The notes under the pieces: model-generated
Database searches by the model: none
Seen by the model: only the letters and a program-made list of their open reading frames with translations
What the model was told of the DNA's origin: nothing
Program-made: the position numbers and the translations under genes
Origin: Treponema sp.
GTDB taxonomy: Bacteria; Spirochaetota; Spirochaetia; Treponematales; Breznakiellaceae
Direction: 5' to 3'
Assembly (NCBI GenBank): GCA_031266635.1
Contig: JAISAN010000101.1
Location: 1-35,160, forward strand
DNA: 35,160 nt
Part shown: one piece after another, positions 854 through 24,197 of the stretch
Position numbering within the stretch: position 1 is the stretch's first letter
Layout of the letters: the number at the start of each line of letters is the position of its first letter

Positions 854-2005
854 TTACCAAATCAAAAAATCTTTTCCCAAAAGACGTAAGACCGCTTCAA
901 CAAAAAAATAATCACCGTAAATGATGGGGACTTCCGTATCCTCAGGCCCACCGTGGTACGAACCGGTTCCTCTGCCGATTATTCCGTCTGTTTGTATGTC
1001 CCAATCGGCAAAGGCTTTTTCACCAGCCTTCAGCAGGTTTCCCGCCGATTCATGATAAAACATCTTTTCGGATTCATCAACGCAGGACGCTATTTCCAAA
1101 AGGCCGCAGGCGCTTATCATAGCAGCGGTGGAATCGTATTTGACCGGCTCCGGCGGCGCGCGGAAATCAACCACGGAAATCCAGTTATTCCGCGCGCAAT
1201 TCGCCGTCACATAGTGGGCGATTCTCTTCGCCGCGTCAAGGTACTTTTGTTGCCGGGTATAACGGAAACTCAGGGCAAAACCGTAGACCGCCCAACTTTG
1301 GCCGCGGCTCCAGGAGGAACCGGGAGCGCAGCCCTGACCACCGGGCGTTTCAAGGCATTCACCGGTCTCCGGGGAAAGGACAGCTATGTGGTTGCAGCTT
1401 CCATCGGGCCTGACCAGCGCGCCAAGGGCGGTATCGGCGTGGTTTTGAGCGATGTATGAAAAACGAGGGTCATTTATCTCGGCAGAAGCCCAATACAGTA
1501 GGGGGATGTTCATCAGACAATCAATTATGATCCAGCCGGTTCGATCGCCGTTCCAGGCGCGGATAAATTTGCCCGCCGGATTGTAGCGTCCGGCCAGTAG
1601 GTTTGCCGCATGTAAGCCGCGCCGCCGGGAATCCAAACTGCCGGTCAACCGGTAGTTTGCCACCGCGGAGTGGAGCCACATAAAGCCTACATCATGGTGC
1701 AAACCTTCCCAGCTTTCCAGGGCTTTATCCAGCCGTTTTTCTATCGTTTCGGCAGTCTTCCGGTATGTTTCGTCTTTTGTGGCATGGTACATCTGCCAGA
1801 GTATCCCCGGCCAGAAACCATTGGTCCACCAGTAGATGCCTTCAGAGGTATCCAAATCATGGTAATGGCCGTCCCGGGGAATGTACGGGATTATATCCCC
1901 CAACCGAGAACATTCCGCCTTCAATTTGGCGTTGAGTTTCTCAAAGATGCTTTCCGCCCATTTTCGGTCTCCGGCAGCCAATCGGTAATTCATACGCTTC
2001 TCCAA
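854..2005 (-). CDS. Glycoside hydrolase family 88 (unsaturated glucuronyl hydrolase-like), no signal peptide
   Basis: 383-aa ORF with WWTNGFWPGILW, HHDVGFMW and IIDCLMNIPLLYWAS motifs characteristic of GH88 (alpha/alpha)6 enzymes that act on lyase-generated unsaturated uronates. Confidence 0.85.
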   Translation of the reverse strand: MEKRMNYRLAAGDRKWAESIFEKLNAKLKAECSRLGDIIPYIPRDGHYHDLDTSEGIYWWTNGFWPGILWQMYHATKDETYRKTAETIEKRLDKALESWEGLHHDVGFMWLHSAVANYRLTGSLDSRRRGLHAANLLAGRYNPAGKFIRAWNGDRTGWIIIDCLMNIPLLYWASAEINDPRFSYIAQNHADTALGALVRPDGSCNHIAVLSPETGECLETPGGQGCAPGSSWSRGQSWAVYGFALSFRYTRQQKYLDAAKRIAHYVTANCARNNWISVVDFRAPPEPVKYDSTAAMISACGLLEIASCVDESEKMFYHESAGNLLKAGEKAFADWDIQTDGIIGRGTGSYHGGPEDTEVPIIYGDYFFVEAVLRLLGKDFLIW

Positions 2006-2081
2006 ATCAACAACCGCGCGGCAGAACCACGCGGTATGTTGTTCTCATAAGGTATTAAACCCTCGCCACGAATCAAACCAG

Positions 2082-2993
2082 TTATATCCCTTCAAAACAG
2101 TCTCTCCAGAGAATCTCCATATAATCGCCGTTTATATGAATTGGCAATATGCTGTACCCCGATTGGCGCAGATTTTTTGGGTCCCAGTGATCCAGAAGCA
2201 GATAAGGCTGTCCTCCGGCACAAAAAATGCAGGCACTCTGGGCGCCGAAGGTTTGACGGTAACCAGGCCCCGAACAGGGGTTGTCGATCAGTTTCCACCG
2301 GGCGCCACACAATAATTGCGTGTTAACGGCGTACAGCATACTGTTTGGCTTCCAGCCGGTACATCCGGAACTGACCAGGTAGTATAGGTCGTTATGATGA
2401 AGAAGCGCCGGGGCCTCCCGTTCCTGATCAACCAGGACCTTGGTGAAAAGCCCGGTGAAGCCGGTAAAATCATCGTTCAGCTGGGAGATATACAATGTTT
2501 TGTTCCAGTCGCCGCTATGCACCAGATACGCTCTGCCGTCCGTATCCTGAAACACCGTCATGTCCCGGCAATCGGTACGGTTCGCGTGATGGACGGCAAG
2601 GAATTCAAAAGGACCAGTGGGTGAACCGGAAACAGCTACGCCCGCTCTGGCGAATGTGTAATCTTCGTTGTCCAAATGTATCCAGAGCGCGAAGTTTTTG
2701 TTTTTGGGGTTGTATATCACTTTGGGGCGCTCACAAACCCTGGATGTATGGATGGGACTTCCGGAATCGGTTTTATTTGCTTCCAATACATTGCCTTCGA
2801 ACTGCCAATCCCGCAGATTGGGCGAGGAATAGCAGGATATTCCCACAAAAGGAACCTGATTTTTACCGGGCAAATTATCAACGCCCTTATTTTCACCGTA
2901 CCAATACCAGGTTTTCCCATACTTGATAACGCAGCCGCCGTGGGCCTGTATGGAAGCCCCTGAATTATCCGTCCACAGTTCACCATTTTTCAT
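2082..2993 (-). CDS. Glycoside hydrolase family 43 (subfamily 24-like exo-beta-1,3-galactanase type), no signal peptide
   Basis: 303-aa ORF. IQAHGGCVIKYGKTWYWYGE, ERPKVIYNP and RDMTVFQDTDGRAYL match the five-bladed propeller GH43 pattern as I recall it for exo-beta-1,3-galactanases. Confidence 0.8.
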   Translation of the reverse strand: MKNGELWTDNSGASIQAHGGCVIKYGKTWYWYGENKGVDNLPGKNQVPFVGISCYSSPNLRDWQFEGNVLEANKTDSGSPIHTSRVCERPKVIYNPKNKNFALWIHLDNEDYTFARAGVAVSGSPTGPFEFLAVHHANRTDCRDMTVFQDTDGRAYLVHSGDWNKTLYISQLNDDFTGFTGLFTKVLVDQEREAPALLHHNDLYYLVSSGCTGWKPNSMLYAVNTQLLCGARWKLIDNPCSGPGYRQTFGAQSACIFCAGGQPYLLLDHWDPKNLRQSGYSILPIHINGDYMEILWRDCFEGI

Positions 2994-3034
2994 ACAAACT
3001 CCTTATTAAGGGTAACAATTCTTCGGCATGAATG

Positions 3035-3060
3035 AAAACCCCCGCCTTTCCGGGCGGAGG
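3035..3060 (-). terminator. Rho-independent terminator after the beta-helix hydrolase gene
   Basis: On the minus strand: CCTCCGCC-CGGAAA-GGCGGGGG (8-bp GC stem with one G-U) followed by TTTTCATTCAT. It starts 4 nt after the stop codon at 3064-3066. Confidence 0.6.
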
Positions 3061-3063
3061 TCT

Positions 3064-4545
3064 TCATTTCAAAACAATATGTTCCGCAAATTGCCCAATG
3101 TGGATGTTCCCTTCTTCGAAGCTTGTTATCCGATTCCCGTTGATAACGATATTTTTAAAGGTAATGTCGTTAACAACACGGGATTTGTCATATCCTTCAA
3201 TAACGGAAGGATTTTCAGGCCAGCCTTCGTAATTATACGAAATATCGCGAAAGGTAACATTCTCTATCCCCCGACCGGGACCGGTACAGTATTTTTCGTT
3301 GAACAAAATACGGAGATTAAAAAGCTGGCCTTCGGTGATATTTTCCACCCTGATTTTTTCAAAAACAACATTTCTCACCAGATTATGATCGCTCACGCTA
3401 AAGGCCATACACCCCTGATAATCCCGATCATCCTCATCATGTTCCAGAATATCAATGTTTGAAAAATGCAGGTTTTCTATCACGTTTCCGTCAAAACCAG
3501 TATCCCCGTGGAGGCCGATATTGATAGGATGCGCAATATCCGCCCAGAGGATGGCGTTTTTAACACGGTAATTTTTTGCATCGCCATAAAATTCCCAGCG
3601 GTGGGTATAAACGGCTATGCAGTCGTCCGAATTTCGCATAAAAATATCTTCGATAACAACATCGGAACAACTCATCAGATCAATACCATCGCTCCAACCC
3701 TTAGAGCTAAAGGACTTGAAGTTGCGGATTGTAAGGCCCGTTGTTTGTCCTCCCAATACAGTATAGTGATTGGGGTTGATAACGGTGATACCATTAATCT
3801 CGATATTCTGGCTGAACCGCAGATCAAACCCCTGTTCCGGGGCGTCAAGAATACCCCGGCCAATAAAACGCACATCCTCAACCGTATCGCAGAGGAATTT
3901 ACCGCGCAGCACGGCGCCGGGGGCCAGATATACGGTTTTACCGGAAGGAATAACAAATACCTTTTTTTCGTTTTCCGGCACATGTATTCCCGGCCCAAAA
4001 TAAATCACAGCGGGATCATGGGGATCGGGTTTTTCAGTTTCCAGGGGATTGGCGAAAACGTGCAGGTTATGCACGCGGTCACCGTTTACTTCCACCGAAA
4101 GTTTTACGGGCTCCGTCAGGGTAAAGGTAACATAATTGCCCTGTATTGTGGGCTGTATGCCTTTGGAAAGCGGGCGAATTTTTACATCATCCAGTATCCC
4201 GTTATTCATCTTGACCCGCATTTCCACCATACCTGAAAAATCAAACTGTACCATAGACGCCGGCTGTGGATTGTTCATGTCCACGATTACCTTATATTCG
4301 TAGAGGTCTTGCCATTCTCCGCCGGGCAGGCGCAGGCTCACCGTAAAATCGCTGTTGTGGTGGGTGTAAAAAATTTCCCGGGGAACCGGATGCAGGGTTA
4401 AGATATTTTTTTTTGCCATTATGGGATTCTCCGTTTTATCAATTTGTATGAATTCCTTTCCAGAAGATGAATTTCCGCAGCCGGTATAAACGAAAACCCC
4501 GGTTAAAATGAACGCCCCTAGGATGGCGGGCATGGGCCGCTTCAT
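3064..4545 (-). CDS. Right-handed beta-helix glycoside hydrolase (GH28/GH49-like) lipoprotein
   Basis: 493-aa ORF. Lipobox VYTG-C after a hydrophobic signal. DGIDLMSCSDVVIEDIFMRNSDDCIAVY resembles the GH28 NTDGID...GDDCIA catalytic region. The start shares one nucleotide with the GH31 stop (TAATG). Confidence 0.7.
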   Translation of the reverse strand: MKRPMPAILGAFILTGVFVYTGCGNSSSGKEFIQIDKTENPIMAKKNILTLHPVPREIFYTHHNSDFTVSLRLPGGEWQDLYEYKVIVDMNNPQPASMVQFDFSGMVEMRVKMNNGILDDVKIRPLSKGIQPTIQGNYVTFTLTEPVKLSVEVNGDRVHNLHVFANPLETEKPDPHDPAVIYFGPGIHVPENEKKVFVIPSGKTVYLAPGAVLRGKFLCDTVEDVRFIGRGILDAPEQGFDLRFSQNIEINGITVINPNHYTVLGGQTTGLTIRNFKSFSSKGWSDGIDLMSCSDVVIEDIFMRNSDDCIAVYTHRWEFYGDAKNYRVKNAILWADIAHPINIGLHGDTGFDGNVIENLHFSNIDILEHDEDDRDYQGCMAFSVSDHNLVRNVVFEKIRVENITEGQLFNLRILFNEKYCTGPGRGIENVTFRDISYNYEGWPENPSVIEGYDKSRVVNDITFKNIVINGNRITSFEEGNIHIGQFAEHIVLK

Positions 4546-6626
4546 TATGACAATACTCCACAGTCAATACCGTTCCATTCACGGACAACATAACGGGGCG
4601 GTTCCGTTCCTGTCCGCACGGCGGAAACGGAACCGTTACCGTCCTGGGTAAGAACCAGCGTGTTGTATTTTCCCTCTTCATGGGCGAGGCTCAGACCGTC
4701 ATCCTCGTACAGGGTAAAACGTTTTTCCCCGCCTCCAAAACAAAATACAGTTAAATCAAATACCGTATCTTCTTTAACACATAAGACCGGTTCCGCCAGG
4801 GGAAAAATAACGCCGGATTTGATAAAAACAGGTAAAATTTCAAGATCGGTTTTACAGACGATAGTTTTACCGCCTGAAAGCCGTTCGTGGGTCCAAAAGT
4901 CGTACCATTCACCGGCCGGAAGAAATACCTCCCGCGATGTTTGTCCCCTGAATACCGGCGCGACCAGCAGACTGTCGCCAAACATATACTGATCATCAAT
5001 GGTATGCGTAAGCCCATCGTTTTCATAATCAAGCGCGAGGGCGCGTACCGGCGGCCGGCCTTCCAGGTGGTAACGCCAGAACGCGGCGTAAAAATACGGG
5101 ATTAACTTCATCCTGAGTTCAAGAAACTTTTTAACAATCGCGGTGACGGCATCACTGCCGTTCATCTTTTCACCCGCGAGATTTTTCGCCAAATCGGTTT
5201 GAAACCAGGGCGGATTGGGTATTCTCCAGCAATTCAACAGCGACTGGGATGAAAATACAACGCTCTGGAGGCGGCGGATTAAATCTTCCGCGTCTTCGCA
5301 GGAACGGACCTCCGGCGACCAAAGGAGGCCGGAAAAGCCTGAATTGACCAGGGCACGGATAAATTGCCGGTGGTCGTACAGATCGCTGTAAAGCACAAAG
5401 GGGCTTTTTGCCGCCAGCGCCCAGGAGGAACGAACCTGTCCCATAGTACGTATGCCCCGATCCCTGAAAGCCTGTTCTATGGTTTTTTGGTACAGCAAAC
5501 CCAGTGCGCTGTGCATCTGCTCGCCATCCAGCCCTGAGGGAAAGGACGAAAGTTCCGGAAACGACCAGCTGGAAGGGTTAAAGTCGGAATTATCACATTC
5601 ATCAATCTTAAAGCCCGAGATGCCGTTATCAACAAAATGGTCCCGATGATAGCCGCCGAATAGCTCCCGCGTTTTTTTATCCGCCAGGTCAGGAACCAGC
5701 CCGCCCCATACTTCGTAATCGCCGGAACGGTTCTCCAGTTTTGCGTACAATTCGGCATGGGGATGTATAAATACATGCTCCCATAAATTGACATGATAAT
5801 TTTGCCGCCGAAGCTGGTGCAATAAATCGTCCGGCTCGGGGAACAGGAAAGCGTTCCACTGATAGGTACAGGAGTAGCTATGGGACTGCCAGCCCGGTTC
5901 GAGGCCGATAACGTCAAAAGGAATACCCTGGCGGCGAAATGTTTCAGCCAGTTGCAGCGTAAAGTTCTGGTCCGCGCCGCCGTACAAACGGTACCAGTTC
6001 CCCAGCGCCCAAAGGGGTGGAATACAGCCGCCCCCGGAAAAAAGATTGTACCGGCATACCACATCCAACATGGAGGGGCCTTCAAAAAAATAAAGATCCG
6101 CCCCTTCGCAATTCGGTATCTCAATGAGCACACGGCGTTCATTGTGGGCCTGTTTGAGGGCGTATAAAGACTGTTCCGAAAATTCCCGGTGCGCTTTCAT
6201 CGGTTTGGCAAACACTTTTGAAGAACCTTTCGCGCCGTTTGTACCGAGGTAGAAAGTAACATACCGGAACGTATCTACCAATACGCCGTATCCCGCAGTA
6301 GAAACATAAAACGGTATCGGCGCGTGGCTTTCCCCGGTATCAGCGGACGGATCGCTGTTCACTTTCATAAACCGGCGGCGGCCCGCGTGGTTAAGGGAAA
6401 AAAACTGTAGGCCGAATCCGTAAAAATTTTCGTCATTTTTCATGGGCAGTTCCACTACGGAACCGCGCCGCGTAAAACGGACGGTAATGTCTTTATACCC
6501 GAAGGGCAGCGATACCGATCCGGCGTCCTCAAGCCGGGCCGCGCCGCCGCCGAAAAAACGGACAGGGCTTGCATCTTCGGCGGAACCAAAGCAATACCGC
6601 CATACCCCTGAAACAAACTGGTTCAC
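4545..6626 (-). CDS. Glycoside hydrolase family 31 (alpha-glucosidase/alpha-xylosidase-like), no signal peptide
   Basis: 693-aa ORF. GIPFDVIGLEPGW and GFKIDECD (compare YicI KTDFGE nucleophile region), with size and order consistent with GH31. Confidence 0.7.
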   Translation of the reverse strand: MNQFVSGVWRYCFGSAEDASPVRFFGGGAARLEDAGSVSLPFGYKDITVRFTRRGSVVELPMKNDENFYGFGLQFFSLNHAGRRRFMKVNSDPSADTGESHAPIPFYVSTAGYGVLVDTFRYVTFYLGTNGAKGSSKVFAKPMKAHREFSEQSLYALKQAHNERRVLIEIPNCEGADLYFFEGPSMLDVVCRYNLFSGGGCIPPLWALGNWYRLYGGADQNFTLQLAETFRRQGIPFDVIGLEPGWQSHSYSCTYQWNAFLFPEPDDLLHQLRRQNYHVNLWEHVFIHPHAELYAKLENRSGDYEVWGGLVPDLADKKTRELFGGYHRDHFVDNGISGFKIDECDNSDFNPSSWSFPELSSFPSGLDGEQMHSALGLLYQKTIEQAFRDRGIRTMGQVRSSWALAAKSPFVLYSDLYDHRQFIRALVNSGFSGLLWSPEVRSCEDAEDLIRRLQSVVFSSQSLLNCWRIPNPPWFQTDLAKNLAGEKMNGSDAVTAIVKKFLELRMKLIPYFYAAFWRYHLEGRPPVRALALDYENDGLTHTIDDQYMFGDSLLVAPVFRGQTSREVFLPAGEWYDFWTHERLSGGKTIVCKTDLEILPVFIKSGVIFPLAEPVLCVKEDTVFDLTVFCFGGGEKRFTLYEDDGLSLAHEEGKYNTLVLTQDGNGSVSAVRTGTEPPRYVVREWNGIDCGVLS

Positions 6627-6694
6627 CGGCGCTCCTTTCTCATGATGAAATCATACAAGGCATTTTTTTCCTGGAGCAGCGCAAGTTTCATACG

Positions 6695-8296
6695 CTAACG
6701 GCTATCCAGATGTTTCTGTACCTGATCGATAATCGCCTGCCGTATCACGTCAAGTCCGGCGTTTTTTACCTGGGTATAATATTCCTCCAGGGCGGCTTTT
6801 GTTTTCTCAGGCGTCTCGGCCAGCCCCATCATTAAAATAGGACGATAGGTGGACTGTATACCGGCAACCGCGGCGTAAGCGGTACGTAACGCCGCATCCG
6901 CCTCATTGTTGAACGTAAAACCGGCAATGGGACTAGGAATGTAGCTGGCGGGATCATTTTGATACCTGAAAATTTCCTTTATGTCCTCCGGATAATTGGT
7001 ATCGATACGGATATAGTTGGGGTTCCATGTCATCTCATAACCCGGGAACACGTATTTATTTGCCGGGGAAAGATCCTGAAATTCATCATCCCCGACAGCC
7101 AGCCAGTCTTCCCCTTCAATGCCAAATTCAAACAGGTCGTGGTTTTCCCTGCTCCGAAAGATCCAGTCGATAAAGGCCATTGTTTTATCGATCTTTTTCG
7201 ACTGCCGGGGGACGCAGAGGAAATTCCACGCGGTAAGCGGAGTGGTTACAATTTTCTCCCGGTTCCGCATGGTGGGAATATACATATACATTTCTATTGC
7301 TTTTCCTATTTTCTCCATTGTCCGCGCATCGGCAAGGTAGTTTGAAATATTCCCTTCTTTTGCCGCTATTTTCTCCGCGTAAAATTGATTGAGATCGGTT
7401 ATGCTCTGGCGATCCCTCTGTGCGTATGCTACCCATTTGGTTATTTTATAAACAACACGATCGTTACGCGTGTTGCGGTTATATGGCGGCGGAAACATGG
7501 CATAAGCCGAATCCGGGTCTCCCAGGGTGGCCGCGCCGATTACTTTTTTTCCATCTTCGCTCAAGGCCACATCAAACATCATGCCCACGCCGTTACCCGA
7601 TCCGTCAATATTGAAAATATTCCTGGCCCGCTTTTCGATAATGTCATCGTCAAGATAATAAAAGGCCCTGGAGCCTCCAACACCAAAGGGGGCGATCATA
7701 AACAGCGCCCCGCTTTTAATATCAGCCTGGACATGCTGAAAATAGGCCGCCAAATCCTCGTTGGAATCAATGGGGGCCATGCCGTATTTTTCACGCAGGT
7801 CTTTGCGAAGGATAATAACCTGAATATCTTCCGCGGCCTGGGTCAAGGGGATGGCGTAAATACTGCCGTCCCCGTTAGTTACCTGGGCGATATATTCTGG
7901 CGGAAAGGCCTTTTTTAAGCCGGGATAGTTGTCATTATTAAAATAGGATGAAATATCCGCATAGGCCCCCTGGGAAGAAAGCCGGTTAAGGTTCATCCAG
8001 TAGGCGTCAAACACCAAGTCGGCGTTTTCCTGATTGCTCATAATAAGCGGCATCTTTTCCCGGTGATCCGCCCCGGAAGACCAGATAATGTCGAGTTTAA
8101 TATTGAGCGTGTCCTTTGTTTGTTCATAAAACTTCGCCAAAACCTTGTCCATGTTTTGCGGTTCTCCAAACAGGTAAACTTTAAGTGTTGTCTGCCCGGA
8201 AATGTCGTTTGTACAACAGACCATAAACACTATCGCCGTTAATACGGCGGCCGTCAAACAAAACCAAAAAACGCCTTTTTTCAGTCTTTTTTTCAT
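6695..8296 (-). CDS. Large extracellular solute-binding lipoprotein of a CUT1/LplABC-type sugar ABC importer (SBP1)
   Basis: The ORF-track start at 8311 is a TTG. ATG at 8296 (MKKRLKKG...) is preceded by GGAG 7 nt upstream. About 530 aa with a signal/lipobox (FMVC-C) and a DUF3502-like C-terminus. Paralog of 20999..22642. Confidence 0.85.
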   Translation of the reverse strand: MKKRLKKGVFWFCLTAAVLTAIVFMVCCTNDISGQTTLKVYLFGEPQNMDKVLAKFYEQTKDTLNIKLDIIWSSGADHREKMPLIMSNQENADLVFDAYWMNLNRLSSQGAYADISSYFNNDNYPGLKKAFPPEYIAQVTNGDGSIYAIPLTQAAEDIQVIILRKDLREKYGMAPIDSNEDLAAYFQHVQADIKSGALFMIAPFGVGGSRAFYYLDDDIIEKRARNIFNIDGSGNGVGMMFDVALSEDGKKVIGAATLGDPDSAYAMFPPPYNRNTRNDRVVYKITKWVAYAQRDRQSITDLNQFYAEKIAAKEGNISNYLADARTMEKIGKAIEMYMYIPTMRNREKIVTTPLTAWNFLCVPRQSKKIDKTMAFIDWIFRSRENHDLFEFGIEGEDWLAVGDDEFQDLSPANKYVFPGYEMTWNPNYIRIDTNYPEDIKEIFRYQNDPASYIPSPIAGFTFNNEADAALRTAYAAVAGIQSTYRPILMMGLAETPEKTKAALEEYYTQVKNAGLDVIRQAIIDQVQKHLDSR

Positions 8297-8330
8297 TTTT
8301 TCGCTCCACAAAAAGAATTATTTAGAATCT

Positions 8331-15615: not shown

Positions 15616-17112
15616 TTACTCTCCGTTTAATGCGTTTACGATTGCTGAAACACCCGCGAAATCGGCCTCTGTTTTGATGCCTTTGGTAAAGGTTATCTGA
15701 TAAAGCTTCGCATTGTTCAGCGCGGTGGTGAACAGGCAGTGGGTTACGGACTTAAACGCGGCGTTACTAAAGGCAGGACAGTTTCTGTCCTGCATAAACT
15801 CGCCGTTCAAGTAGGTTTTTAACGCTCCGCCATTTCTGGCAATGGCCATGTGATACCACCGGTTACGGCTCCCCGTGGAGGAAAGCCCAAAGTCAGGCCG
15901 GTCACCCGTATTGGGCCGGTAAATCCAGAGGCCGTGACCTTCCATCCAGAAAGCGCCGTCGTTTTCGGCGCCTGTGCCGTAAAACCGGATAGCCTTCGCC
16001 GCTCCGGCGGCCACGGTGTCCCCCAAATTGATGTACAGTTCGATGGTCCACTCGTTTTCGGCCAGATATGAACCTCCCATCTGACCGATGTCCAGCGTAC
16101 CGGTAGTGGTATTGGCAGGGAATTCCAGTACCCGGTAAGCATTGATCGTACCGGTGCTAGTGCCGGTATTATCTATGGGACGGATGATGCCGCCGTTTGG
16201 TATGGTTCCCACAAATTCGCCGTCTTCATTAACGCCATAGGTGATAGTATCAATGGCGGAATAGGTCCACTTGGCGAATACCTCTTTATCCCTGGTTATC
16301 CGGGTATCTTTGTCAAAGGCCACGTTATCCGCGGTAAACCAGCCTTCCAGCGGGAAGTCCGCCATTGCGGGGGTTTCGGGCCAGGATCCCGCTTCCTCAA
16401 GCGTAGTCGCCGCGGGGGCGTTTATCTTAACTTCCTTGCGTAATTCCGCCGGTCCCCAGCCGCCGCCGTTGGCGTTAAAGGTAACGGCAAACTCCTGGGG
16501 GCCGCTATACCAGTAGGCGTAAGACTGGGCTCCGTTTTCAGACAGGTTAAGGCCGGTAACCGGCGTCGTATTACCGAGCTCTTTGGCATAATCAGGCGTG
16601 CCCCCCGGCATTTCGGTAAACCAGCCGCCAAAAGCGTTATTGCCACTTGCCGGAAACGGCATATTGGATATTGTCCACGGCGGCCTTTTTACATTAACCG
16701 TAAAGATTTCGCCGCTGCCGTTTATGGTCCCGCCGTTGGGATTAAAAACAACGCGGTAATCTTTCGATGGATCGGCCCCGTTGCCCCAATAGGCGTAGAG
16801 GGCAAGATCCCGGTTGACCTCCCAGGGCGGTTCAAACAGATCACCTTCTTCCGCACGGTCATACCAGCCCCGGAATTGATATCCGGAGTAGTATGGTTCA
16901 GGTAATTCCTCGAGCAATTCTCCCGCATACATATTCAGCTTCATGCTGTAGGTTGGTTTTGAACTTTCCGTGGTCTGTTCCGCGGCGGTGTCAAAAGTTA
17001 TGATATGGGTCTTCGCAGTTTCTCCTCCCAGATCGCAGCCCGGCAGAATCACAAATGCCAGCGGCAAAAGTACCGTGACCACCGTTATCGCCTTTGTAAA
17101 AAATCGTTTCAT
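15616..17112 (-). CDS. Surface lipoprotein: 3 Listeria-Bacteroides repeats + C-terminal LamG domain (paralog of the 993-aa protein)
   Basis: 498 aa. Lipobox ILPG-C. Repeats end LALYAYW / SYAYW / VFAKW. LamG module WTIELYINLGD...WYHMAIARNGGALKTYLNGE. C-terminal tail matches those of the 993-aa protein modules. Confidence 0.75.
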   Translation of the reverse strand: MKRFFTKAITVVTVLLPLAFVILPGCDLGGETAKTHIITFDTAAEQTTESSKPTYSMKLNMYAGELLEELPEPYYSGYQFRGWYDRAEEGDLFEPPWEVNRDLALYAYWGNGADPSKDYRVVFNPNGGTINGSGEIFTVNVKRPPWTISNMPFPASGNNAFGGWFTEMPGGTPDYAKELGNTTPVTGLNLSENGAQSYAYWYSGPQEFAVTFNANGGGWGPAELRKEVKINAPAATTLEEAGSWPETPAMADFPLEGWFTADNVAFDKDTRITRDKEVFAKWTYSAIDTITYGVNEDGEFVGTIPNGGIIRPIDNTGTSTGTINAYRVLEFPANTTTGTLDIGQMGGSYLAENEWTIELYINLGDTVAAGAAKAIRFYGTGAENDGAFWMEGHGLWIYRPNTGDRPDFGLSSTGSRNRWYHMAIARNGGALKTYLNGEFMQDRNCPAFSNAAFKSVTHCLFTTALNNAKLYQITFTKGIKTEADFAGVSAIVNALNGE

Positions 17113-17128
17113 AATAAACCCCGCCTTG

Positions 17129-18625
17129 TTAATTTATGCCCAGTTCCCGAATCAAATCCGGCCCCGCTATAAGGAACGATCCGTAAGCCGGGGGAGAATC
17201 CGATCCATCATACTGTTCACCGTCCCGGGTGAGATATGATTCGGTCCAGGGCATGGAAAAGCCCCGCCGCCGGTGGTAGTGGTTGTAAACAGTCTCAAAT
17301 GCGGGTTTCCCGCTTCCCCGGCTCCCGGAACCGGGCGACCCTACCCCGATAAGATTGCCGTAAATATTTTCCGGGTTGTGACCTGAAACATCATCCCAGT
17401 TGGGATCGAAATAGTACCACGCGCTGTAGGGATCAAATTCCATAGGCGTGTGGGTCCAGTTGTTGTCCCCGGTATTGTACCGGGCGGTAAATTCACTGCC
17501 CTTCCACAGCGAGCTGTCAAAGGCCGTGTATACATCATCACCCTGTTTGTATGCCATCTCGCACACCATGCCCAGCTTCATAATGCCCAATACGGCATGC
17601 CCCTGATCCCGTTTGGTTTCCTGGGTCTGGCCGGTTACGGGGTGGACGTAATTGGCGAGGTTGCCGTTGTCAAAACCGCCCAGCCAGAAATTCAGGGATT
17701 TGTTGTACATTTCCTGATCATCAAGAAAAATCGCCATCCCCATATAGGCCGACGTAACGATAAGGCCGACGTTTCCCTGGGTGTTCGGCGTAATGGCGTA
17801 AAACCGTTCCATGCTCTCGATCCAGACATTCCGCATGGAATTTTCGATGTTCACAAACTGGCGGGCAGTCAGTCCCGAGCTTTTGTGGTTCACCGTATCC
17901 TTGCCGTGTTTCAGGAGTTCCGCGGCGCAGGCGAATACCGCGCCCTGTAGACCGGTCATAAGCCGGTAATCCCCGGTACCGCCGTCCTTCAGGCCCCTGG
18001 CAGTCTGGGAATAGGCGTCCAGGATCTCAAAAGATTTCATGGCATGCCGTTTATCCCCCGTAAGCATCCACATCAGGGCGTTGAGATACGCGGCCTGGAA
18101 ATCGGTTTCAATATTGGTTTTGTTGCTGCCGTACACCCCGTCCCGGGCAAGGTACACGTAGGGGCCTTTTAAAGTGTAGGTGTGCTGGGCGCTGCTGTTG
18201 GCTCTGAGGCTGTTCCAGGAACTCCGGGCCCGGTATTCGGCATAGCCCCTGCGGTTCCCGGCCTTGAGTTCCCGCCAGGCCGCCCATTTTTCCGGTTCCA
18301 CCACCGATTCATTGGTGTTAAAGTCCTGTCCCGAAGCCGTCGCCGGATTTAATTCCGCCGCCGGATCGGCGGGCGGCGTGGCGGGAGTTACGGCCTGTGA
18401 TATATCGGTTACGGCCGTATACACTCCATCCCCGTCATTGTCGGTCCACTCAATAATGCCTTCCCACCGGTCAATCAGTTTTCTAAGGGCCTCCATATCT
18501 TCCTGGGTATGAAGTACGCCCGGATGGAGAAATCCGTTCCGGGGCGTATACCCCGTGGGACTCATTTTGCATCCTGAAAACAGAATAAGGGCAGGTAGAA
18601 GCAGCGCCGGTATAATTTTTTTCAT
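17129..18625 (-). CDS. Alginate-lyase-fold (alpha/alpha toroid) lipoprotein, paralog 2
   Basis: 498 aa. Lipobox LFSG-C. QETKRDQGHAVLG matches QESGRDQGHATLC of paralog 1, and FQAAYLNALMWMLTGD matches AAAAYQLALRWRISGD. It carries an extra DNDGDG-containing insert. Confidence 0.6.
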   Translation of the reverse strand: MKKIIPALLLPALILFSGCKMSPTGYTPRNGFLHPGVLHTQEDMEALRKLIDRWEGIIEWTDNDGDGVYTAVTDISQAVTPATPPADPAAELNPATASGQDFNTNESVVEPEKWAAWRELKAGNRRGYAEYRARSSWNSLRANSSAQHTYTLKGPYVYLARDGVYGSNKTNIETDFQAAYLNALMWMLTGDKRHAMKSFEILDAYSQTARGLKDGGTGDYRLMTGLQGAVFACAAELLKHGKDTVNHKSSGLTARQFVNIENSMRNVWIESMERFYAITPNTQGNVGLIVTSAYMGMAIFLDDQEMYNKSLNFWLGGFDNGNLANYVHPVTGQTQETKRDQGHAVLGIMKLGMVCEMAYKQGDDVYTAFDSSLWKGSEFTARYNTGDNNWTHTPMEFDPYSAWYYFDPNWDDVSGHNPENIYGNLIGVGSPGSGSRGSGKPAFETVYNHYHRRRGFSMPWTESYLTRDGEQYDGSDSPPAYGSFLIAGPDLIRELGIN

Positions 18626-18650
18626 ATATGCCTCCTGTATACCCTCATGT

Positions 18651-20024
18651 TTAGAAACCCAGGTGGAAATAAACAGGGATAGTAATCAGGGTGTCCAGTT
18701 TACTGGGGCCCGACCGGTCTACCCCCAGCCCTTCACCGCCCGCATAGGAAATGCCGGCCCTGATGTAGCAGTCGGCGTTTACAAAATTCCACTGCGCATA
18801 AGCGCCGAAGCCGTATTTCACGCCCCCCTTCTTGTTGAGCCTGTCGTAATAATTCTCATCGCCGTAAATTTCAATACCCCCGTCGCCGGCAACGCTAAAG
18901 CGGTCGTTGAATTTATAGGAAGGGGAAAAATAAATTTTCGTTACCGGGGCCATGTCTGTTCTGCCGCTGCCGGTAGGTTCGCTGTATCCGCCGAAGCTGA
19001 ACTCGCCGCCGCCGCGCAGGGACAGATCAAAACCAAAATCGTACTGTATCCCCAAAGACACCCGGTGGGGTTCAAGGTAATTCCCCACGGTAATTCTTGG
19101 TTCGTAATAGACAATCTCGCCTGAGTCATTAAGAGCGGGAACCAGGACAGTGGGGTCCATAACAAGGAGGGACAAGGTTCCGCCCAATTCCGCGGTTAAA
19201 CCGGGCAAGCCGGTATAGGCAAAGGCCGCCTGAAAGCGGGGGCCGTTGTTGCTGTCGTTATTATCGCTGTCGGCAATCTTTCTGGTGTTGGGGGCGGGAT
19301 GAACGCCGATGTACTGAAACCGCGCGGAACCGATATTGGGAATATCGTAACCCACGGCGGCCTGAATATTTTCAAGCATATATTTCGCTTCCGTATAGCC
19401 ACCGTATATGCCCCGGTTATTGGCGCTGTTGGCTTCGATAATGTTGTACATCATGGCTCCCAGGTAGAGGTTTTTCAGGGCCGGAACCAAATCGCCGAAG
19501 GGACCGGGAAATTCCAGGGCTATGGCGTCCCTGCCCTCAAACCTGGTGAAAATACTGTCCGTGCCGCCATCCCCAACGCCAAGGTAATCCCCCCAGTTAA
19601 AGCCCTCCACCTTGCCGCGGAGGGTGTCAATGTTAAAGCGGCCCACGTCTATTTTGAACCACTCAAAGGGCCTGTACCATCCGTAGAACATATCCAGTTC
19701 GATGCTGTCAATAAAGTTGAGAATGTCCTGCTGCCGGTTGTCATACCACCAGGGGTAGAGGGCGATTTCCGCATAAAGCCCCACCGTATCCTTCAAGTCG
19801 GCGGTGAAGGTGAGGCTTAACTTGCTCCGGTTGTCGTTATTTCCCCCAAAGCCGCTTACCACGATAGGGTCCCCTATGGGCGTCCATTCGGGGTCATCCC
19901 GATCCACATAGTCAATAACCTGAACCATCGCCGCCGCTTCCATCCCGCCGCCGACAGAAATTTCGGCAAAAACTTCCCCCGCTGTTATCAAACATACAAC
20001 CAATACCAACATTAATTTTTTCAT
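18651..20024 (-). CDS. Putative outer-membrane beta-barrel (porin-like) protein
   Basis: 457 aa. Cleavable signal (VFA-EIS). Gly/Tyr/Asp-rich with alternating hydrophobic stretches. C-terminal YFHLGF ends in Phe, as in many OMP beta-signals. Confidence 0.55.
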   Translation of the reverse strand: MKKLMLVLVVCLITAGEVFAEISVGGGMEAAAMVQVIDYVDRDDPEWTPIGDPIVVSGFGGNNDNRSKLSLTFTADLKDTVGLYAEIALYPWWYDNRQQDILNFIDSIELDMFYGWYRPFEWFKIDVGRFNIDTLRGKVEGFNWGDYLGVGDGGTDSIFTRFEGRDAIALEFPGPFGDLVPALKNLYLGAMMYNIIEANSANNRGIYGGYTEAKYMLENIQAAVGYDIPNIGSARFQYIGVHPAPNTRKIADSDNNDSNNGPRFQAAFAYTGLPGLTAELGGTLSLLVMDPTVLVPALNDSGEIVYYEPRITVGNYLEPHRVSLGIQYDFGFDLSLRGGGEFSFGGYSEPTGSGRTDMAPVTKIYFSPSYKFNDRFSVAGDGGIEIYGDENYYDRLNKKGGVKYGFGAYAQWNFVNADCYIRAGISYAGGEGLGVDRSGPSKLDTLITIPVYFHLGF

Positions 20025-20110: not shown

Positions 20111-20794
20111 TCATTTGTAAATAAAGAAATCAAAATCAACGATTTCGCACCAATACTGGCTTGCTGTAGAGGTATTAACAGCCGAGCGCATATCAAAATT
20201 CAACATCCGCAACTGGTTGTAATCAAAATTGTCCGGGTTGTTATCCGGGTAATCGCTCAGGGCCTCGACATTTTTTACCGCTTTGTAAAAGGGAACCACA
20301 ATTTCCTTGTAGTTTGTTGGATTTGCGGCTCCGGCTTCGTAATCGTGGGCCTTAAACCCTACGCCCCAGACGGCCCAGCGGTAGGAAAAATCAAGAAATT
20401 TAACGGTAACTTCGGTACAATTGGTACGATATTTGAAGACAATGCCATCATAGGCACTGGCGTCGAAGGGTACCCCCCTGATATCAAGATCGCCGTCAAT
20501 GTTCCATACCCGCACGCCGTCATAGGGCCTCCCCTCCGCATCGCCGGCAGCCGTCGCGTTGGTACTGTCCAGTCTCCAGGTTTCCCCGGAGTCGGCTTCG
20601 TTCGGGACCAGCCAGCCGCAGTCGTTCCCGTGATTCGCCATAGCTTTGGCGCCGATTGAAAAGACATCGCTCAGATTAACCGGAATCCGCTCAATCTCAC
20701 TGCCCGGCACTTCACCGCAGCCTGAAAAAACCAAGGTGAACGCTAGCGCCGCTATTACGAACAGCCGCCCCGTCATCCCTATTGTTTTTTTCAT
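20111..20794 (-). CDS. Lipoprotein of unknown function (possible beta-sandwich / CBM-like)
   Basis: 227 aa. Lipobox VFSG-C. Aromatic-rich sequence with no recognisable catalytic motif. RBS AGGAGG 6 nt upstream of the ATG. Confidence 0.5.
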   Translation of the reverse strand: MKKTIGMTGRLFVIAALAFTLVFSGCGEVPGSEIERIPVNLSDVFSIGAKAMANHGNDCGWLVPNEADSGETWRLDSTNATAAGDAEGRPYDGVRVWNIDGDLDIRGVPFDASAYDGIVFKYRTNCTEVTVKFLDFSYRWAVWGVGFKAHDYEAGAANPTNYKEIVVPFYKAVKNVEALSDYPDNNPDNFDYNQLRMLNFDMRSAVNTSTASQYWCEIVDFDFFIYK

Positions 20795-20998: not shown

Positions 20999-22642
20999 TT
21001 AACTGTCCAGATAATCCTGAACCTGGCGGACGATTGCATCCTTGACTTTGGCAAGCCCGGCGGCTTCCATTTGACGGTTCATTTCCCGGAGGATCGCGGC
21101 GGGGTCTTCGTAGGCTCCACATAACAGGGCGTTATGGTACTTTTTTAATATGACCCGGATATTTGCCAGCTCGCTGATAATTTCCCGGTCATCGAGGACA
21201 AAATCTGAAACCGGTATACGGGTAAAGGCATCGGGGGCATACTGATATTCAAACAGGCTTCTCACGTCCTCAGGCAGCCCCGCGGGAATACGGATAAAAC
21301 GGGGGTTCCAGGTTAATTCATAGCCGGGGAACAGATACCGATCCGCCTCGGAAAGCAGGGGATTCGGAACCGGTGTGGATGAATCATCCGCCATATTCCA
21401 GTGAACACCCCTGATACCGTATGAAAACAAATCGTTATGTTCCCGGGATTCAAAAACCCAATTCAAAAATTCAAAAACCTTTTCCGTTTTAGAGGAATTC
21501 CGGGGAACGCATAAATAATTCCACGCCCGGAACGACAGGGCGATGCTTCCCTTTTCCCGGTTCCTGGCGGCCTCAATGTACGGCCAGAAAGCGATCGACG
21601 CCTGGGGCAGATGGGTTTTCAGGGTATTTTGCCACCGGCTGAATTCGCTGACCGCTCCTTCTCCGGCGGCGGCAAAACCATTAAAAAACAGGGGACCCGC
21701 CTGTTCCCGCATCACCGAATCTTCGCTCACATAGACGTTCCACTTTGCCGCCTCCAGAAAATAACGGTTGAAACCCTCAAAGGTATTATATGGGTTGGGA
21801 TAGGCCGTATAGGAGTCTTCGGGATCGCCGTAGGCCGATACGCCGGTTACCCGCTTCCCATCGGACGAAAGTCCCACAAAAAACAGTTCCCTGACGCCGC
21901 CAATGATGCCTTCTATTGGGTAAATACCTTTCGCCGCCATGTCCCAGGTTGCGTCAAACATCATATAAAAACCCCGGTTGTTTTGTATGGATATGGGAAT
22001 CATACCTTTTTCTTCCCGCAATATGGTTTCAAAAAAAAAGCGGAGATCATCGTAGCTTTGTATCGTAATGCCGTAGGCGTCGGCCAGGTCTTTCCGGTAA
22101 TAGATACCGGGAATATCCAGCGGCGCGTTCATAATGGGGATGCCATAGATACCGCCGAAAAAATGGTTGCTGTCAAGAAAGGCGGGAGGAAAGGCTGAGC
22201 GGAGGCTCGAAAGGGCAGGATTGTCAAAATAACCGCTCAGTTCCTTGTAAACATTTTTTTGTATCAGAGAATTCAGATTCATCCAGGGTGCGTTAAAAAC
22301 CAGATCCGCTTCGGTACCGGTACTGGCAATCAAGGCTATCCGTTCCAGGTAGTCATCCCGGAGCATGGTATGAATCCGGATATCGATATTCAGCGTTTCC
22401 CTGGTTTGTTGTTCAAATTCCGCTATCACCTGATCCACATTCCGGTAGGTTTCATTGGAAGCGAACATATATATATTGATAACCGTTGCCTCCCCACCGG
22501 ATTGAAGGGGACTTTTTCCGCCGCATGAAAACAGGTGGAGAAAAAGGGCGCAAAACGCCGCAGCCGGAACCCACGCCGCCGGAAGGGGAATCCGCTTTGC
22601 GAAACGTAATTTATGTGACATTTTCCGCATTATGTTTTCCAT
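20999..22642 (-). CDS. Large extracellular solute-binding lipoprotein (SBP2), paralog of SBP1
   Basis: Start is uncertain (ATGs at 22669, 22663, 22642, 22630, 22621). All choices overlap the 3-prime end of the regulator gene. Lipobox HLFS-C. DUF3502-like C-terminus (VKDAIVRQVQDYLDS). Confidence 0.8.
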   Translation of the reverse strand: MENIMRKMSHKLRFAKRIPLPAAWVPAAAFCALFLHLFSCGGKSPLQSGGEATVINIYMFASNETYRNVDQVIAEFEQQTRETLNIDIRIHTMLRDDYLERIALIASTGTEADLVFNAPWMNLNSLIQKNVYKELSGYFDNPALSSLRSAFPPAFLDSNHFFGGIYGIPIMNAPLDIPGIYYRKDLADAYGITIQSYDDLRFFFETILREEKGMIPISIQNNRGFYMMFDATWDMAAKGIYPIEGIIGGVRELFFVGLSSDGKRVTGVSAYGDPEDSYTAYPNPYNTFEGFNRYFLEAAKWNVYVSEDSVMREQAGPLFFNGFAAAGEGAVSEFSRWQNTLKTHLPQASIAFWPYIEAARNREKGSIALSFRAWNYLCVPRNSSKTEKVFEFLNWVFESREHNDLFSYGIRGVHWNMADDSSTPVPNPLLSEADRYLFPGYELTWNPRFIRIPAGLPEDVRSLFEYQYAPDAFTRIPVSDFVLDDREIISELANIRVILKKYHNALLCGAYEDPAAILREMNRQMEAAGLAKVKDAIVRQVQDYLDS

Positions 22643-24197
22643 AATTATCACTACTCCCTCCATCGCCATATTTTTTACGGTACATTTCAGCGGTCAGCCC
22701 GGTAGACTGCTTAAAAATCACATAAAAATGTTTGGCGTTGAGAAAACCGGCCCGTTCCACGATTTCATGGACATGCATATTCGTCTCGACCAGCATCTTT
22801 TTAACATATTCCAGCCTCGTATCGGTCAGGTATTTGGAAAGGGATATGCCCTTGACGGCCTTAAAAATGGCCCGCAGATAATTGGGGGACAGGCCGATAT
22901 GTTCGGCAATCGTTTCTATGCTTATAGTGCCGTTTGAAAAATTACGGTTAATATAATCGGCGGCCATTTGTACCCATTCGTTTTTTCGGGTTTCAGAAAC
23001 CGCCACCGCCCTGGCCTTCATTTCGGCAAAACGTTCAATACCGGATTCGAGTTTTTGTACGGTCGATACAAGGTCAAGATATTCATGCCGCAGGTCATCG
23101 TAGACCTTCATGGAAAGGTTCAGATCTTTTTGGTTTTTTATATCATTGACGGTCCGCATGAGATCATACAGCGGGGTATACATATACTTGGATAGAAAAA
23201 AGGATATAACCAGGCTGGCCAGCATAAACAGAACGCTGATAACCGTCATAACGGTTTGTATTCTGTTGAAATTGGCGAGCAGCTCCGCTTTATTGCCAAG
23301 GCCGATAAACACCCAGCCCAGAGACGGGGATTTTTTATAGGTAACGAGGTAATCCGTTACCCCCCCCCCCCCTCCCCCCCGTCCGGGGTGGTACGTAAAG
23401 GAATCGTTCGCAAGTCCTGAACCGGTAATCATGCGGTACAGCTCATCTTCACACAGGTTTTTGTTTATCATGTCCGGATCGGAATCGCTGATAATAACGC
23501 CATTCCGGTCAATCACCAGGGTTGCATGTCCTTTGTCAAACAGGGGACCTTCGATTAACTTTTGAAAATACCCCTGATCAATATTGACAATAAATGCCGG
23601 CGTGCTCATACCGCGGTTCAGGCCAAAAAAAACGCTGATCCAGTTTTCATCTACCGTAAACGCTCCGTAGGTATCGGTAAACTTGACCTTTCTGGACAAA
23701 AAAACCGGCTTTTCATTTTGATCTTCCACCATCAGTACCGCATCACGATCAAACATTTCCGCCCGTCCGGCAATGCCGGCGGCGCCGTTAAAGCAGTAAA
23801 AAAAGGCGTCCTCGCCGGGGTTGTAAATGTACAGGGAACGGACCAGCCTGTTGCTTTTCACTTCCTCTCGCAGCCGCGCAAAGATCATCATATAGTCATC
23901 GGATTTTCGTAAAGCCTCGCCGTACATGGCTTTTATTATCACGTCATCGCTTGAATACACCTGAAACAAACGGTTATAGAGCGACTCAAAGAGCAGTTCG
24001 GTGATGCTGTAAGACTGTTCCATGTATTGCCGCGATTTTTCTTCGATTTCCTGTATATACTGCCCCTTGATTATCCCCATAATCAGACCGGATACCAGAA
24101 ACATAACAAAAGCGCCGACCACAAAAAACAGCAACATCGTGCGGAAAATGAGGGAATTCTTTTTAATATACTGAAACGCCCGGGCAACAAACGGCAT
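22611..24197 (-). CDS. Membrane-anchored AraC-family one-component regulator (TM - extracytoplasmic Cache-like sensor - TM - HTH)
   Basis: Start set to ATG 24197 (MPFVARAFQYIKK...). The GTG-extended ORF to 24281 reads through repeat B3. Two hydrophobic segments (LLFFVVGAFVMFLVSGLIMGII and VMTVISVLFMLASLVISFFL). C-terminal AraC HTH (IETIAEHIGLSPNYLRAIFK...KHFYVIFKQSTGLTAEMYRKKY). Confidence 0.8.
   Translation of the reverse strand: MPFVARAFQYIKKNSLIFRTMLLFFVVGAFVMFLVSGLIMGIIKGQYIQEIEEKSRQYMEQSYSITELLFESLYNRLFQVYSSDDVIIKAMYGEALRKSDDYMMIFARLREEVKSNRLVRSLYIYNPGEDAFFYCFNGAAGIAGRAEMFDRDAVLMVEDQNEKPVFLSRKVKFTDTYGAFTVDENWISVFFGLNRGMSTPAFIVNIDQGYFQKLIEGPLFDKGHATLVIDRNGVIISDSDPDMINKNLCEDELYRMITGSGLANDSFTYHPGRGGGGGGVTDYLVTYKKSPSLGWVFIGLGNKAELLANFNRIQTVMTVISVLFMLASLVISFFLSKYMYTPLYDLMRTVNDIKNQKDLNLSMKVYDDLRHEYLDLVSTVQKLESGIERFAEMKARAVAVSETRKNEWVQMAADYINRNFSNGTISIETIAEHIGLSPNYLRAIFKAVKGISLSKYLTDTRLEYVKKMLVETNMHVHEIVERAGFLNAKHFYVIFKQSTGLTAEMYRKKYGDGGSSDNYGKHNAENVT
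23360..23380 (-). repeat. Homopolymer tract inside the regulator CDS: C13-T-C7 on plus strand (G7-A-G13 on coding strand)
   Basis: Read directly: 23360-23372 are all C, 23373 is T, 23374-23380 are all C. It encodes the R-G-G-G-G-G-G stretch (PGRGGGGGGV) in the predicted sensor domain. Confidence 0.95.

Follow-up and report, generated by a model that had tools for sequence, protein, structure and literature searches.

Introduction

The systems closest to the locus described here are known from Proteobacteria, Bacteroides and Gram-positive bacteria. In Proteobacteria, a specific porin is combined with an ATP-binding cassette (ABC) importer, as in the LamB/MalEFGK maltodextrin system, the Vibrio ChiP/chitobiose importer and the KdgM/KdgN-TogMNAB pectin system of Dickeya. 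Published Bacteroides polysaccharide-utilisation loci (PULs) for arabinogalactan proteins (AGPs) combine a subfamily 24 enzyme of glycoside hydrolase (GH) family 43 (GH43_24), a rhamnose-glucuronate (Rha-GlcA) lyase of polysaccharide lyase (PL) family PL27 or of GH145, and an unsaturated-uronyl hydrolase (GH105) (PMC8406133). Gram-positive PULs and the CUT1 importers LplABC/YtcQP of Bacillus subtilis employ a large SBP_bac_1 plus DUF3502 lipoprotein and two permeases, and depend on a shared ATPase, with no ATPase gene in the locus. Here we report on a 35,160-nucleotide (nt) stretch of Treponema sp. DNA (hereafter, the window), in which 16 genes at 854-24197, numbered g1 to g16 by position, very probably make up a glycan-utilisation locus built from a porin-like outer-membrane barrel (g13), an ABC importer and enzymes, as judged from sequence and gene context. 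In some gut ecosystems, spirochaetes rank as major degraders of fibre; to our knowledge, the way in which glycans cross their outer membrane is largely undescribed, and our literature search found no described spirochaete porin-linked glycan locus.

The locus bears a functional likeness to the proteobacterial systems, in which a passive, substrate-linked barrel is encoded beside, or co-regulated with, a binding-protein-dependent ABC importer, depolymerases work outside the cell and final trimming is cytoplasmic, including that of unsaturated uronates in Dickeya. Since a specific porin with an ABC importer is already known from Proteobacteria, a design that departs from the Sus paradigm is not unprecedented. 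Unlike the proteobacterial porins, g13 shows no detectable sequence relationship to them (no Pfam match) and has an obligate lipoprotein partner, g14. Further, the window locus relies outside the cytoplasm mostly on lipoproteins, among them large Flg_new/LamG binders, and its host is a spirochaete.

Like the Bacteroides AGP PULs, the locus assembles one co-localised set (regulator, binding lipoproteins, enzymes and transporter) for one glycan, and it would follow the same enzyme logic of exo-β-1,3-galactanase, lyase and unsaturated-uronyl hydrolase. The sequence-only reading of the window had described the design as non-Sus, and this was supported: none of the 16 products matched the Pfam models TonB_dep_Rec, Plug or SusD at E≤0.01, and the flanks carry housekeeping genes. 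Lacking the SusC/SusD pair that defines this class, the locus is not a Sus-like PUL, and a TonB-dependent uptake route was rejected because no such protein occurs among the 16 products. In place of SusC/SusD and a TonB-dependent transporter stand ABC import and the porin-like barrel, which is syntenic with lyase and ABC genes in the close relatives examined. Other differences are that the last three glycosidases are predicted to be cytoplasmic rather than periplasmic, that GH88 takes the place of GH105, and that the lyase-like proteins have no detectable likeness to a solved chain and are not demonstrably PL27.

With the LplABC/YtcQP-type systems the locus shares, in addition to the importer composition given above, an AraC-family regulator and cytoplasmic exo-glycosidases. 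It differs from them in that the diderm host adds an outer-membrane step (g13, g14) and in having a single membrane regulator instead of a kinase and response-regulator pair.

Conservation of the Locus in Treponema

The list of open reading frames (ORFs) of the window holds 16 consecutive ORFs, all on the minus strand, which fill positions 854-24281. When gene starts were refined by means of Shine-Dalgarno sites and signal peptides, the start of the last gene moved from 24281 to 24197; ORF list and refined starts together upheld the sixteen-gene, single-strand locus that the sequence-only reading had placed at 854-24197. Thirteen of the 16 products scored above the curated Pfam cut-offs, and NCBIfam added nothing for products without a Pfam assignment. 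Three clear GHs, one β-helix GH, two lyase-like proteins, two binding proteins, two permeases and an AraC regulator are co-localised, as expected for a PUL of the ABC-importer type. The closest homologues (75-77% identity) come from named Treponema sp. metagenome-assembled genomes (MAGs), in line with the spirochaete origin proposed earlier. The related MAGs may come from insect gut.

The strongest evidence on the barrel is its conserved gene context. Synteny was determined from contigs encoding g13 relatives and by tblastn of the window proteins. The order g14-like gene, barrel gene and gene for a type B lyase-like protein (lyB; g12 in the window) was invariant in nine further Treponema-type contigs (L003, L004, L007, L008, L009, L010, L093, L094 and L095), so that a search for the same neighbourhood in other Spirochaetota, which had been suggested as a check, was successful. 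All barrel relatives of at least 45% identity that were placed on contigs adjoin a lyB-type gene downstream, and a g14-like gene upstream wherever the contig reaches; one contig (L001) begins at the barrel and has the lyB-type gene next. Genes for Flg_new/LamG lipoproteins, a type A lyase-like protein (lyA; g8 in the window), two permeases and a binding protein come next wherever the related contigs extend. One of the nine, L093, is a second, paralogous locus in the MAG that also carries L003. Gene content and context together indicate that this is a genuine 16-gene glycan-utilisation locus of a Treponema-like spirochaete, with a cassette kept in related Treponema MAGs.

The Enzyme Module and Its Candidate Substrate

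As had been claimed for the GH88, GH43 and GH31 enzymes, the products of g1, g2 and g4 are leaderless: none has an N-terminal hydrophobic segment, and all three are predicted to be cytoplasmic. The first, g1 (854-1993, with its ATG at 1993 and a Shine-Dalgarno site), encodes a predicted GH88 unsaturated glucuronyl hydrolase (UGL). It scored 35.8 bits against Glyco_hydro_88 (cut-off 26.6) and matched the UGL of Bacillus GL1 (PDB 1vd5) at 1.4e-64, with D88 aligned to hhDvgf and D149 to iiiDc, which we take to be the catalytic Asp pair of the Bacillus enzyme. The GH43 product of g2 (2082-2993; 73.6 bits) had its best PDB matches to 6eug/6euf, 7bys, 3vsf and 5flw at 6e-58 to 2e-35; the top six were all GH43_24 enzymes, and it is by these nearest neighbours only that we predict a subfamily-24-like exo-β-1,3-galactanase. 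Four Pfam domains of GH31 enzymes were found in g4 (4545-6626): GH31_2nd (116 bits), GH31_3rd (92 bits), Gal_mutarotas_2 and DUF5110. This clear GH31 member is nearest to the Pedobacter proteins 4xpo and 4xpr (4xpo at 1.3e-130, over residues 4-668), which are α-galactosidases, and we infer the same specificity for g4 from its nearest neighbour 4xpo.

The fourth glycosidase, the lipoprotein g3 (3064-4545), is a predicted β-helix hydrolase of clan GH-N that falls between GH28 and GH49. Its score against Pfam GH28 was weak (46.6 bits, cut-off 22.9). Searched against the PDB, the profile of its family reached the GH49 isopullulanase 3wwg at 3e-12 with the N-terminal part and the GH28 exo-polygalacturonosidase 3jur at 8.5e-6 with the catalytic helix. 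The motifs SDG (D286), DDC (D307, D308) and HG (H346, G347) were invariant among 17 homologues, and we regard g3 as a putative clan GH-N hydrolase. Hidden Markov model searches therefore placed the enzymes in CAZy-type families as anticipated, clearly for GH88, GH43 and GH31 and weakly for the β-helix and the two lyase-fold proteins, which passed the Pfam GH28 and Alginate_lyase cut-offs.

For a comparison across phyla, we collected 64 loci of at least 12 kb outside Spirochaetota that carry lyase-like genes (42 with lyB and 22 with lyA only). A g3-like β-helix gene accompanied lyB in 24 of 42 loci and was absent from all 22 loci with lyA only; g3-like, lyA and lyB genes occurred all together in 14 of the 64. 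In eleven loci of Bacteroidaceae and Prevotellaceae MAGs, an N-terminal lyB-type and a C-terminal g3-like part form single polypeptides of 800-925 amino acids (aa), for instance at 9851-12628 of L055. Such a fusion constitutes a Rosetta-stone link between two uncharacterised families. A Pedobacter locus (L020) contains SusD, a hybrid two-component system (HTCS) regulator, GH43, lyB, lyA and a GH28-like gene, and that of Paraprevotella xylaniphila (L030) contains GH31, GH127, two GH97 and a GH28-like gene, together with an HTCS regulator, a double lyase-like protein and one more lyase-like gene. By their gene content, the Bacteroidota loci with the g3/g8/g12 module are classical SusC/D PULs. 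As the module is common to them and to the window, Treponema would run the same chemistry behind a porin and an ABC importer.

The claim that the substrate contains uronate was supported indirectly, since in 14 of the 64 loci of other phyla a GH88 gene is no more than 10 kb from the lyase-like genes. With regard to the glycan itself, the earlier suggestion of type II arabinogalactan gained strength. GH43_24-like genes were found in 4 of the 64 loci, all of Pedobacter/Sphingobacteriaceae type, where they adjoin lyB, and Paraprevotella adds GH127, GH97 and GH31. GH127 and α-galactosidase-type enzymes fit arabinogalactan side chains. GH97 includes β-L-arabinopyranosidases (PMC8056906). Given this fit and the published GH43_24 signature of AGP loci, we rank first an acidic, rhamnose/glucuronate-capped type II arabinogalactan (an AGP or a gum-like glycan), a tentative choice to which we assign somewhat less than an even chance.

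Among the alternatives, the one that survives best, while being rather unlikely, keeps the architecture and changes the glycan: the locus might serve another acidic heteroglycan, such as rhamnogalacturonan or pectic side chains, a glucuronomannan-type gum (ghatti, karaya) or a xanthan/gellan-type exopolysaccharide, with the GH43_24-like and GH31 enzymes as strain-specific accessories. Several observations favour it at the expense of arabinogalactan. The g3 family keeps GH28-type Asp motifs, which would equally suit an α-uronidase on a pectic glycan, its catalytic helix matches exo-polygalacturonosidase, and faint NCBIfam matches to rhamnogalacturonidase were obtained; yet Pfam revealed no recognised pectate or rhamnogalacturonan lyase family, GH105, GH106 or GH78 in the window. 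The nearest relative of g1 is the Bacillus GL1 enzyme, which takes part in degrading gellan and xanthan. The accessory GHs also differ among loci: those beside the cassette vary between Treponema loci (L004, L010), and of the 64 loci of other phyla, just 4 combine the lyase module with a GH43_24-like gene and just 1 with a GH31 gene. Against this stands the position of the GH43_24-like genes, which adjoin lyB in four distant Bacteroidota loci, together with the Paraprevotella GH127, GH97 and GH31 neighbours, which match arabinogalactan side-chain enzymes (for GH97, PMC8056906).

The Lyase-Like Proteins

The lipoproteins g8 (lyA; 10357-11958), with an N-terminal Ig-like domain, and g12 (lyB; 17129-18625) each carry a lyase-like α/α domain and scored weakly against Pfam Alginate_lyase (45.5 and 38.4 bits, respectively; cut-off 22.2). 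They are paralogues of 32% identity and represent two old types, A and B. Orthologues of g8 (47-52% identity) were found in Chitinophaga and Niastella. In the GTDB representative genomes, at least 505 lyase-like matches were confirmed by tblastn in Bacteroidota, Planctomycetota, Verrucomicrobiota, and some Firmicutes and Fibrobacterales. Homologues are fused to LamG, CBM6/35/96, dockerin or sulfatase domains; LamG-lyase fusions were seen in L008, L010 and P0045-49. In gum arabic work, the literature search returned nothing specific on this family.

The nearest described proteins are the PL5 alginate lyases (A1-III, AlgL) and the unassigned Bacteroides ovatus 'alginate lyase' 3nfv, with which g8 and g12 share the Pfam model, a core of approximately 370 aa, a size that fits a single-domain α/α toroid, and apparently aligned Asn and Arg positions (Asn in NGNW vs. 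NNH; Arg in RDQGH). The details of these alignments weaken the case for lyase chemistry. A profile built from single-domain family members, leaving out those with carbohydrate-binding modules (CBMs), matched 3nfv with an E-value of 0.06 and A1-III of PL5 with one of about 1, both weak, and in the same weak alignments the positions of PL5 His192 and Tyr246 fall on a Trp and on the RDQGH motif. As the PL5 His and Tyr positions are unmatched, β-elimination is unsupported by conserved catalytic residues. Moreover, PDB-wide searches with g8, g12 and the family profile gave no match to PL27 or PL42 (L-rhamnose-α-1,4-D-glucuronate lyase), which speaks against close membership in those families. Alginate was rejected as the substrate, since the gene context is that of a plant arabinogalactan or gum-like glycan and the PL5 catalytic positions are unmatched.

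These proteins might then be α/α-toroid hydrolases or non-catalytic binders, with GH88 acting on unsaturated uronates released by other community members, an explanation that we consider improbable. Apart from the non-significant PL5/3nfv alignments and the unmatched catalytic His and Tyr, it could call upon the invariant acidic residues D175, D219, E336, E356 and E378, which would suit a hydrolase, and upon the want of a solved relative (no match at E≤1 when the PDB was searched by phmmer with g8 or g12). However, the invariant N285, R339, H449, Y180 and Y366 could form a divergent β-elimination site, both proteins exceed the curated Alginate_lyase cut-off, and a GH88 gene is nearby in the window as well as in the 14 loci of other phyla mentioned above. 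Lyase chemistry of g8 and g12 is thus no more than plausible.

The Barrel and Its Partner Lipoprotein

The product of g13 (18651-20024) is a predicted porin-like outer-membrane β-barrel. The sequence opens with a signal peptide of the cleavable type (…GEVFA|EISVGG), and its C-terminus reads …HLGF, with a terminal Phe. AlphaFold2 returned a large β-barrel (predicted local distance difference test score, pLDDT, 75.7; predicted template modelling score, pTM, 0.73), and sequence and model together agreed with the single signal-peptide β-barrel named in the sequence-only reading. The top Foldseek matches of the model were PorB, OmpT, the chitoporin VhChiP, AlgE, the major outer-membrane protein (MOMP) and OprB, at E of about 1e-10 and template modelling (TM) scores of 0.45-0.6; the probability was 1.0 for PorB, OmpT, VhChiP, AlgE and MOMP, at approximately 10% identity. 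The modelled fold is therefore porin-like and resembles porins that include the sugar-specific VhChiP and OprB.

A word-indexed search of 5.8 billion proteins yielded 19 relatives of g13, and all named ones belong to Treponema or Spirochaetaceae MAGs. At E≤1e-3, an exhaustive profile search of the family returned 867 representative clusters, of which 249 passed E≤1e-30; given this number and the lack of a Pfam match, g13 belongs to a sizeable family of outer-membrane proteins that Pfam does not model. A scan of a genome collection with the barrel alignment gave no confirmed relative, and two scans of metagenome contigs with the barrel found nothing, in a collection that evidently does not hold these contigs.

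Directly upstream of the barrel gene, g14 (20111-20794) encodes a 227-aa lipoprotein for which no Pfam or NCBIfam match was obtained. Fourteen homologues were found, and every one with a named source comes from a Treponema MAG. Its fold may be a CBM-like β-sandwich; the Foldseek matches of the model offer a carbohydrate-binding fold as a lead only. A copy of g14 with 97% identity and a longer called N-terminus is present on a 9986-nt Logan contig (P0051) from a public sequencing run, and a near-identical strain has therefore been sampled elsewhere.

That g13, with g14, is instead a scaffold or export device anchoring or exposing the locus lipoproteins, or a general porin carried along, seems to us as improbable as the non-lyase explanation of g8 and g12: distant family members (28-30% identity) do occur singly, with no glycan genes around them (L002, L005, L006), Foldseek matches general as well as specific porins, and nine locus lipoproteins need sorting, but the clade of at least 45% identity always lies between g14-like and lyB genes, accompanied by genes of the ABC importer on every contig that is long enough, and also in the paralogous locus L093, and such linkage is typical of substrate-specific porins.

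Importer, Putative Binding Lipoproteins and Regulator

The ABC importer is encoded by g5 to g7. The solute-binding lipoprotein g5 (6695-8296) matched SBP_bac_1 and DUF3502, and orthologues of 68-73% identity follow the permeases in L008, L010 and L093. Both permeases, g6 (8500-9399) and g7 (9413-10339; ATG at 10339 with a Shine-Dalgarno site), matched BPD_transp_1 (53.7 bits for g7), and g6 is 83-86% identical in L003, L008 and L093. In L093, a CN_hydrolase-family gene (4951-5814), which has no counterpart in the window, lies between the binding protein gene and the g14-like gene.

A second solute-binding lipoprotein, g15 (20999-22630), scored 54.8 bits against DUF3502 and 34.4 bits against SBP_bac_1. 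The gene begins inside the end of the regulator gene, at a start that could be placed between 22621 and 22669, and orthologues (66-69% identity) stand at the head of L003 and L008. The regulator itself, g16 (22611-24197), is a predicted membrane one-component protein with a transmembrane segment, a dCache-like domain, a second transmembrane segment and an AraC helix-turn-helix. The translation shows two hydrophobic segments; HTH_18 and HTH_AraC scored 65 and 48.7 bits, respectively, and dCache_1 26.7 bits, below its cut-off of 45.

Three further lipoproteins are putative or possible binders. The 993-aa g9 (12078-15059) is a putative glycan-binding protein with six Flg_new repeats (188.8 bits over six stretches) and two LamG domains (Laminin_G_3, 57.3 bits over two stretches), and the 498-aa g11 (15616-17112) has Flg_new repeats (59.1 bits) and a LamG domain (Laminin_G_3, 33.3 bits), with orthologues of 52-53% identity in the equivalent position in L003 and L008. 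Between them, g10 (15178-15612; 144 aa) consists of a single Ig-like domain and has no Pfam match. This domain recurs as the N-terminal domain of g8 (window positions 11598-11766 vs. 15231-15438), and in L001, L007, L008 and L010 it occurs in tandem, in up to approximately 10 copies, within giant Flg_new/LamG proteins.

Lipoboxes were read by eye in the translations, where a Cys-containing motif follows a basic and then a hydrophobic stretch. The nine lipobox-bearing products claimed earlier were all recovered: g3 (YTGC), g5 (MVCC), g8 (LSNC), g9 (FGGC), g10 (FAGC), g11 (LPGC), g12 (FSGC), g14 (FSGC) and g15 (LFSC).

Proposed Working of the Locus

All steps of the mechanism outlined here are drawn from sequence and gene context. 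The membrane dCache-AraC regulator g16 would control the locus and may act with the translationally coupled binding protein g15. The Flg_new/LamG/Ig-like lipoproteins g9, g10 and g11 would bind the polymer, which the lipoprotein enzymes g8 (type A), g12 (type B) and g3 (clan GH-N) would depolymerise outside the cytoplasm. Oligosaccharides would then cross the outer membrane through the porin-like barrel g13, with its partner lipoprotein g14, and enter by a CUT1-type ABC importer made up of the binding protein g5, the permeases g6 and g7, and an ATPase encoded elsewhere. In the cytoplasm, GH88 would remove 4,5-unsaturated glucuronate, the GH43_24-like exo-β-1,3-galactanase would act on the galactan and the GH31 α-galactosidase-like enzyme on terminal residues.

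Several observations weigh against this account. No gene for an ABC ATPase is found among the locus products, and the spirochaete lipoproteins may face either the surface or the periplasm. The AlphaFold2 model of g14 had a pLDDT of 68.9, and its Foldseek matches were weak and of CBM11/CBM28/CBM4 type (E of about 5e-3). Loose junctions of 68-204 nt occur within the gene run, and promoter and terminator scans of the window gave results at or below shuffled expectation; neither points to a single operon. Even so, we regard the combination of locus architecture, mechanism and arabinogalactan substrate as the best overall explanation, and as a reasonably probable one. A bolder version, which we think unlikely as it stands, would make g14 and g13 a spirochaete-specific, TonB-independent counterpart of SusD/SusC, in which a glycan-binding lipoprotein caps a porin-like channel reserved for what the neighbouring enzymes release, and would make the lyA/lyB/β-helix trio, which is conserved and in places fused between Bacteroidota and Treponema, uncharacterised CAZyme families that jointly strip acidic caps from complex arabinogalactans.

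Gene Spacing, Flanks and Repeats

With the refined starts, the successive junctions measure 88 nt, 70 nt, a 1-nt overlap, 68, 203, 13, 17, 119, 118, 3, 16, 25, 86 and 204 nt, and a 20-nt overlap. The statement in the sequence-only reading that most gaps are under 30 nt or overlapping was overstated, as this applies to 7 of the 15 junctions. On the left, the locus is flanked by the 3' end of a chemoreceptor-like gene; on the right, by a tRNA-Arg gene and then by maf-, rpsB-, tsf-, frr-, uppS-, cdsA-, dxr- and rseP-like ORFs on the opposite strand (protein-coding names read from the translations). With the chemoreceptor-like gene on one side and housekeeping genes on the other, the locus is sharply bounded. 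In the Rfam scan of the window, the tRNA alone gave a match. An ORF of 102 aa at 459-767, on the plus strand between the chemoreceptor fragment and the locus, looks like a gene remnant and overlaps the left copy of the repeat described below.

The locus as a whole is enclosed by two copies of a 108-nt direct repeat with 94% identity, at 483-590 and 24476-24583. The repeat forms a strongly folded structure with several hairpins (z = -5.7 and -4.4) and holds the tRNA T-arm-like sequence GGTTCGAGTCC; a search of 92 loci did not detect it. The tRNA-Arg(CCG) gene (24637-24710, minus strand) has the 16 nt of its 3' end duplicated approximately 200 nt away (24432-24447 and 24638-24653), and the right 108-nt repeat lies between both copies. 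This duplication has the look of a scar left by integration at a tRNA, but no integrase is present. The idea that a mobile island had used the 108-nt repeats for its attachment was rejected, as no integrase was found and homology ends at the repeat boundaries.

A second element, of approximately 120 nt and with three hairpins, lies between the permease gene g6 and the binding protein gene g5 (8330-8450; -51.8 kcal/mol, z = -6.7). Its other copy, 95-98% identical, is upstream of the maf-like gene (24793-24907; -62 kcal/mol, z = -9.9), and a similar palindrome separates the g14-like and barrel genes in L003. The element may be of the repetitive extragenic palindromic (REP) kind and may affect segmental mRNA stability.

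The GC content across the locus ranges from 0.46 to 0.58. It is 0.46-0.50 over g2-g3 and g5-g7 and approximately 0.47-0.49 over g15-g16 (21001-25000), and 0.53-0.58 over g8-g13, like the right flank (0.53-0.58). When 2001-10000 is compared with 11001-20000, this mosaic fits piecemeal acquisition of enzyme and transport genes. For g3, identity to a protein of a Bacteroides MAG reaches 57%, and this likeness, with the GC variation, hints at horizontal acquisition.

Implications for Spirochaete Glycan Uptake

Two aspects of the predicted locus are new: a barrel-lipoprotein pair seen only in Treponema-type MAGs, and one enzyme module that appears to be served by two uptake machineries in two phyla. 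The lyase-like and β-helix families are good targets for enzyme discovery on arabinogalactan and gum glycans because they are widespread, genetically coupled and without a close solved structure. The occurrence of their module behind SusCD in Bacteroidota and behind a porin with an ABC importer in Treponema offers a natural comparison of uptake strategies for the same chemistry. For the spirochaetes themselves, g13 and g14 provide a concrete, conserved candidate pair for glycan transport across the outer membrane.

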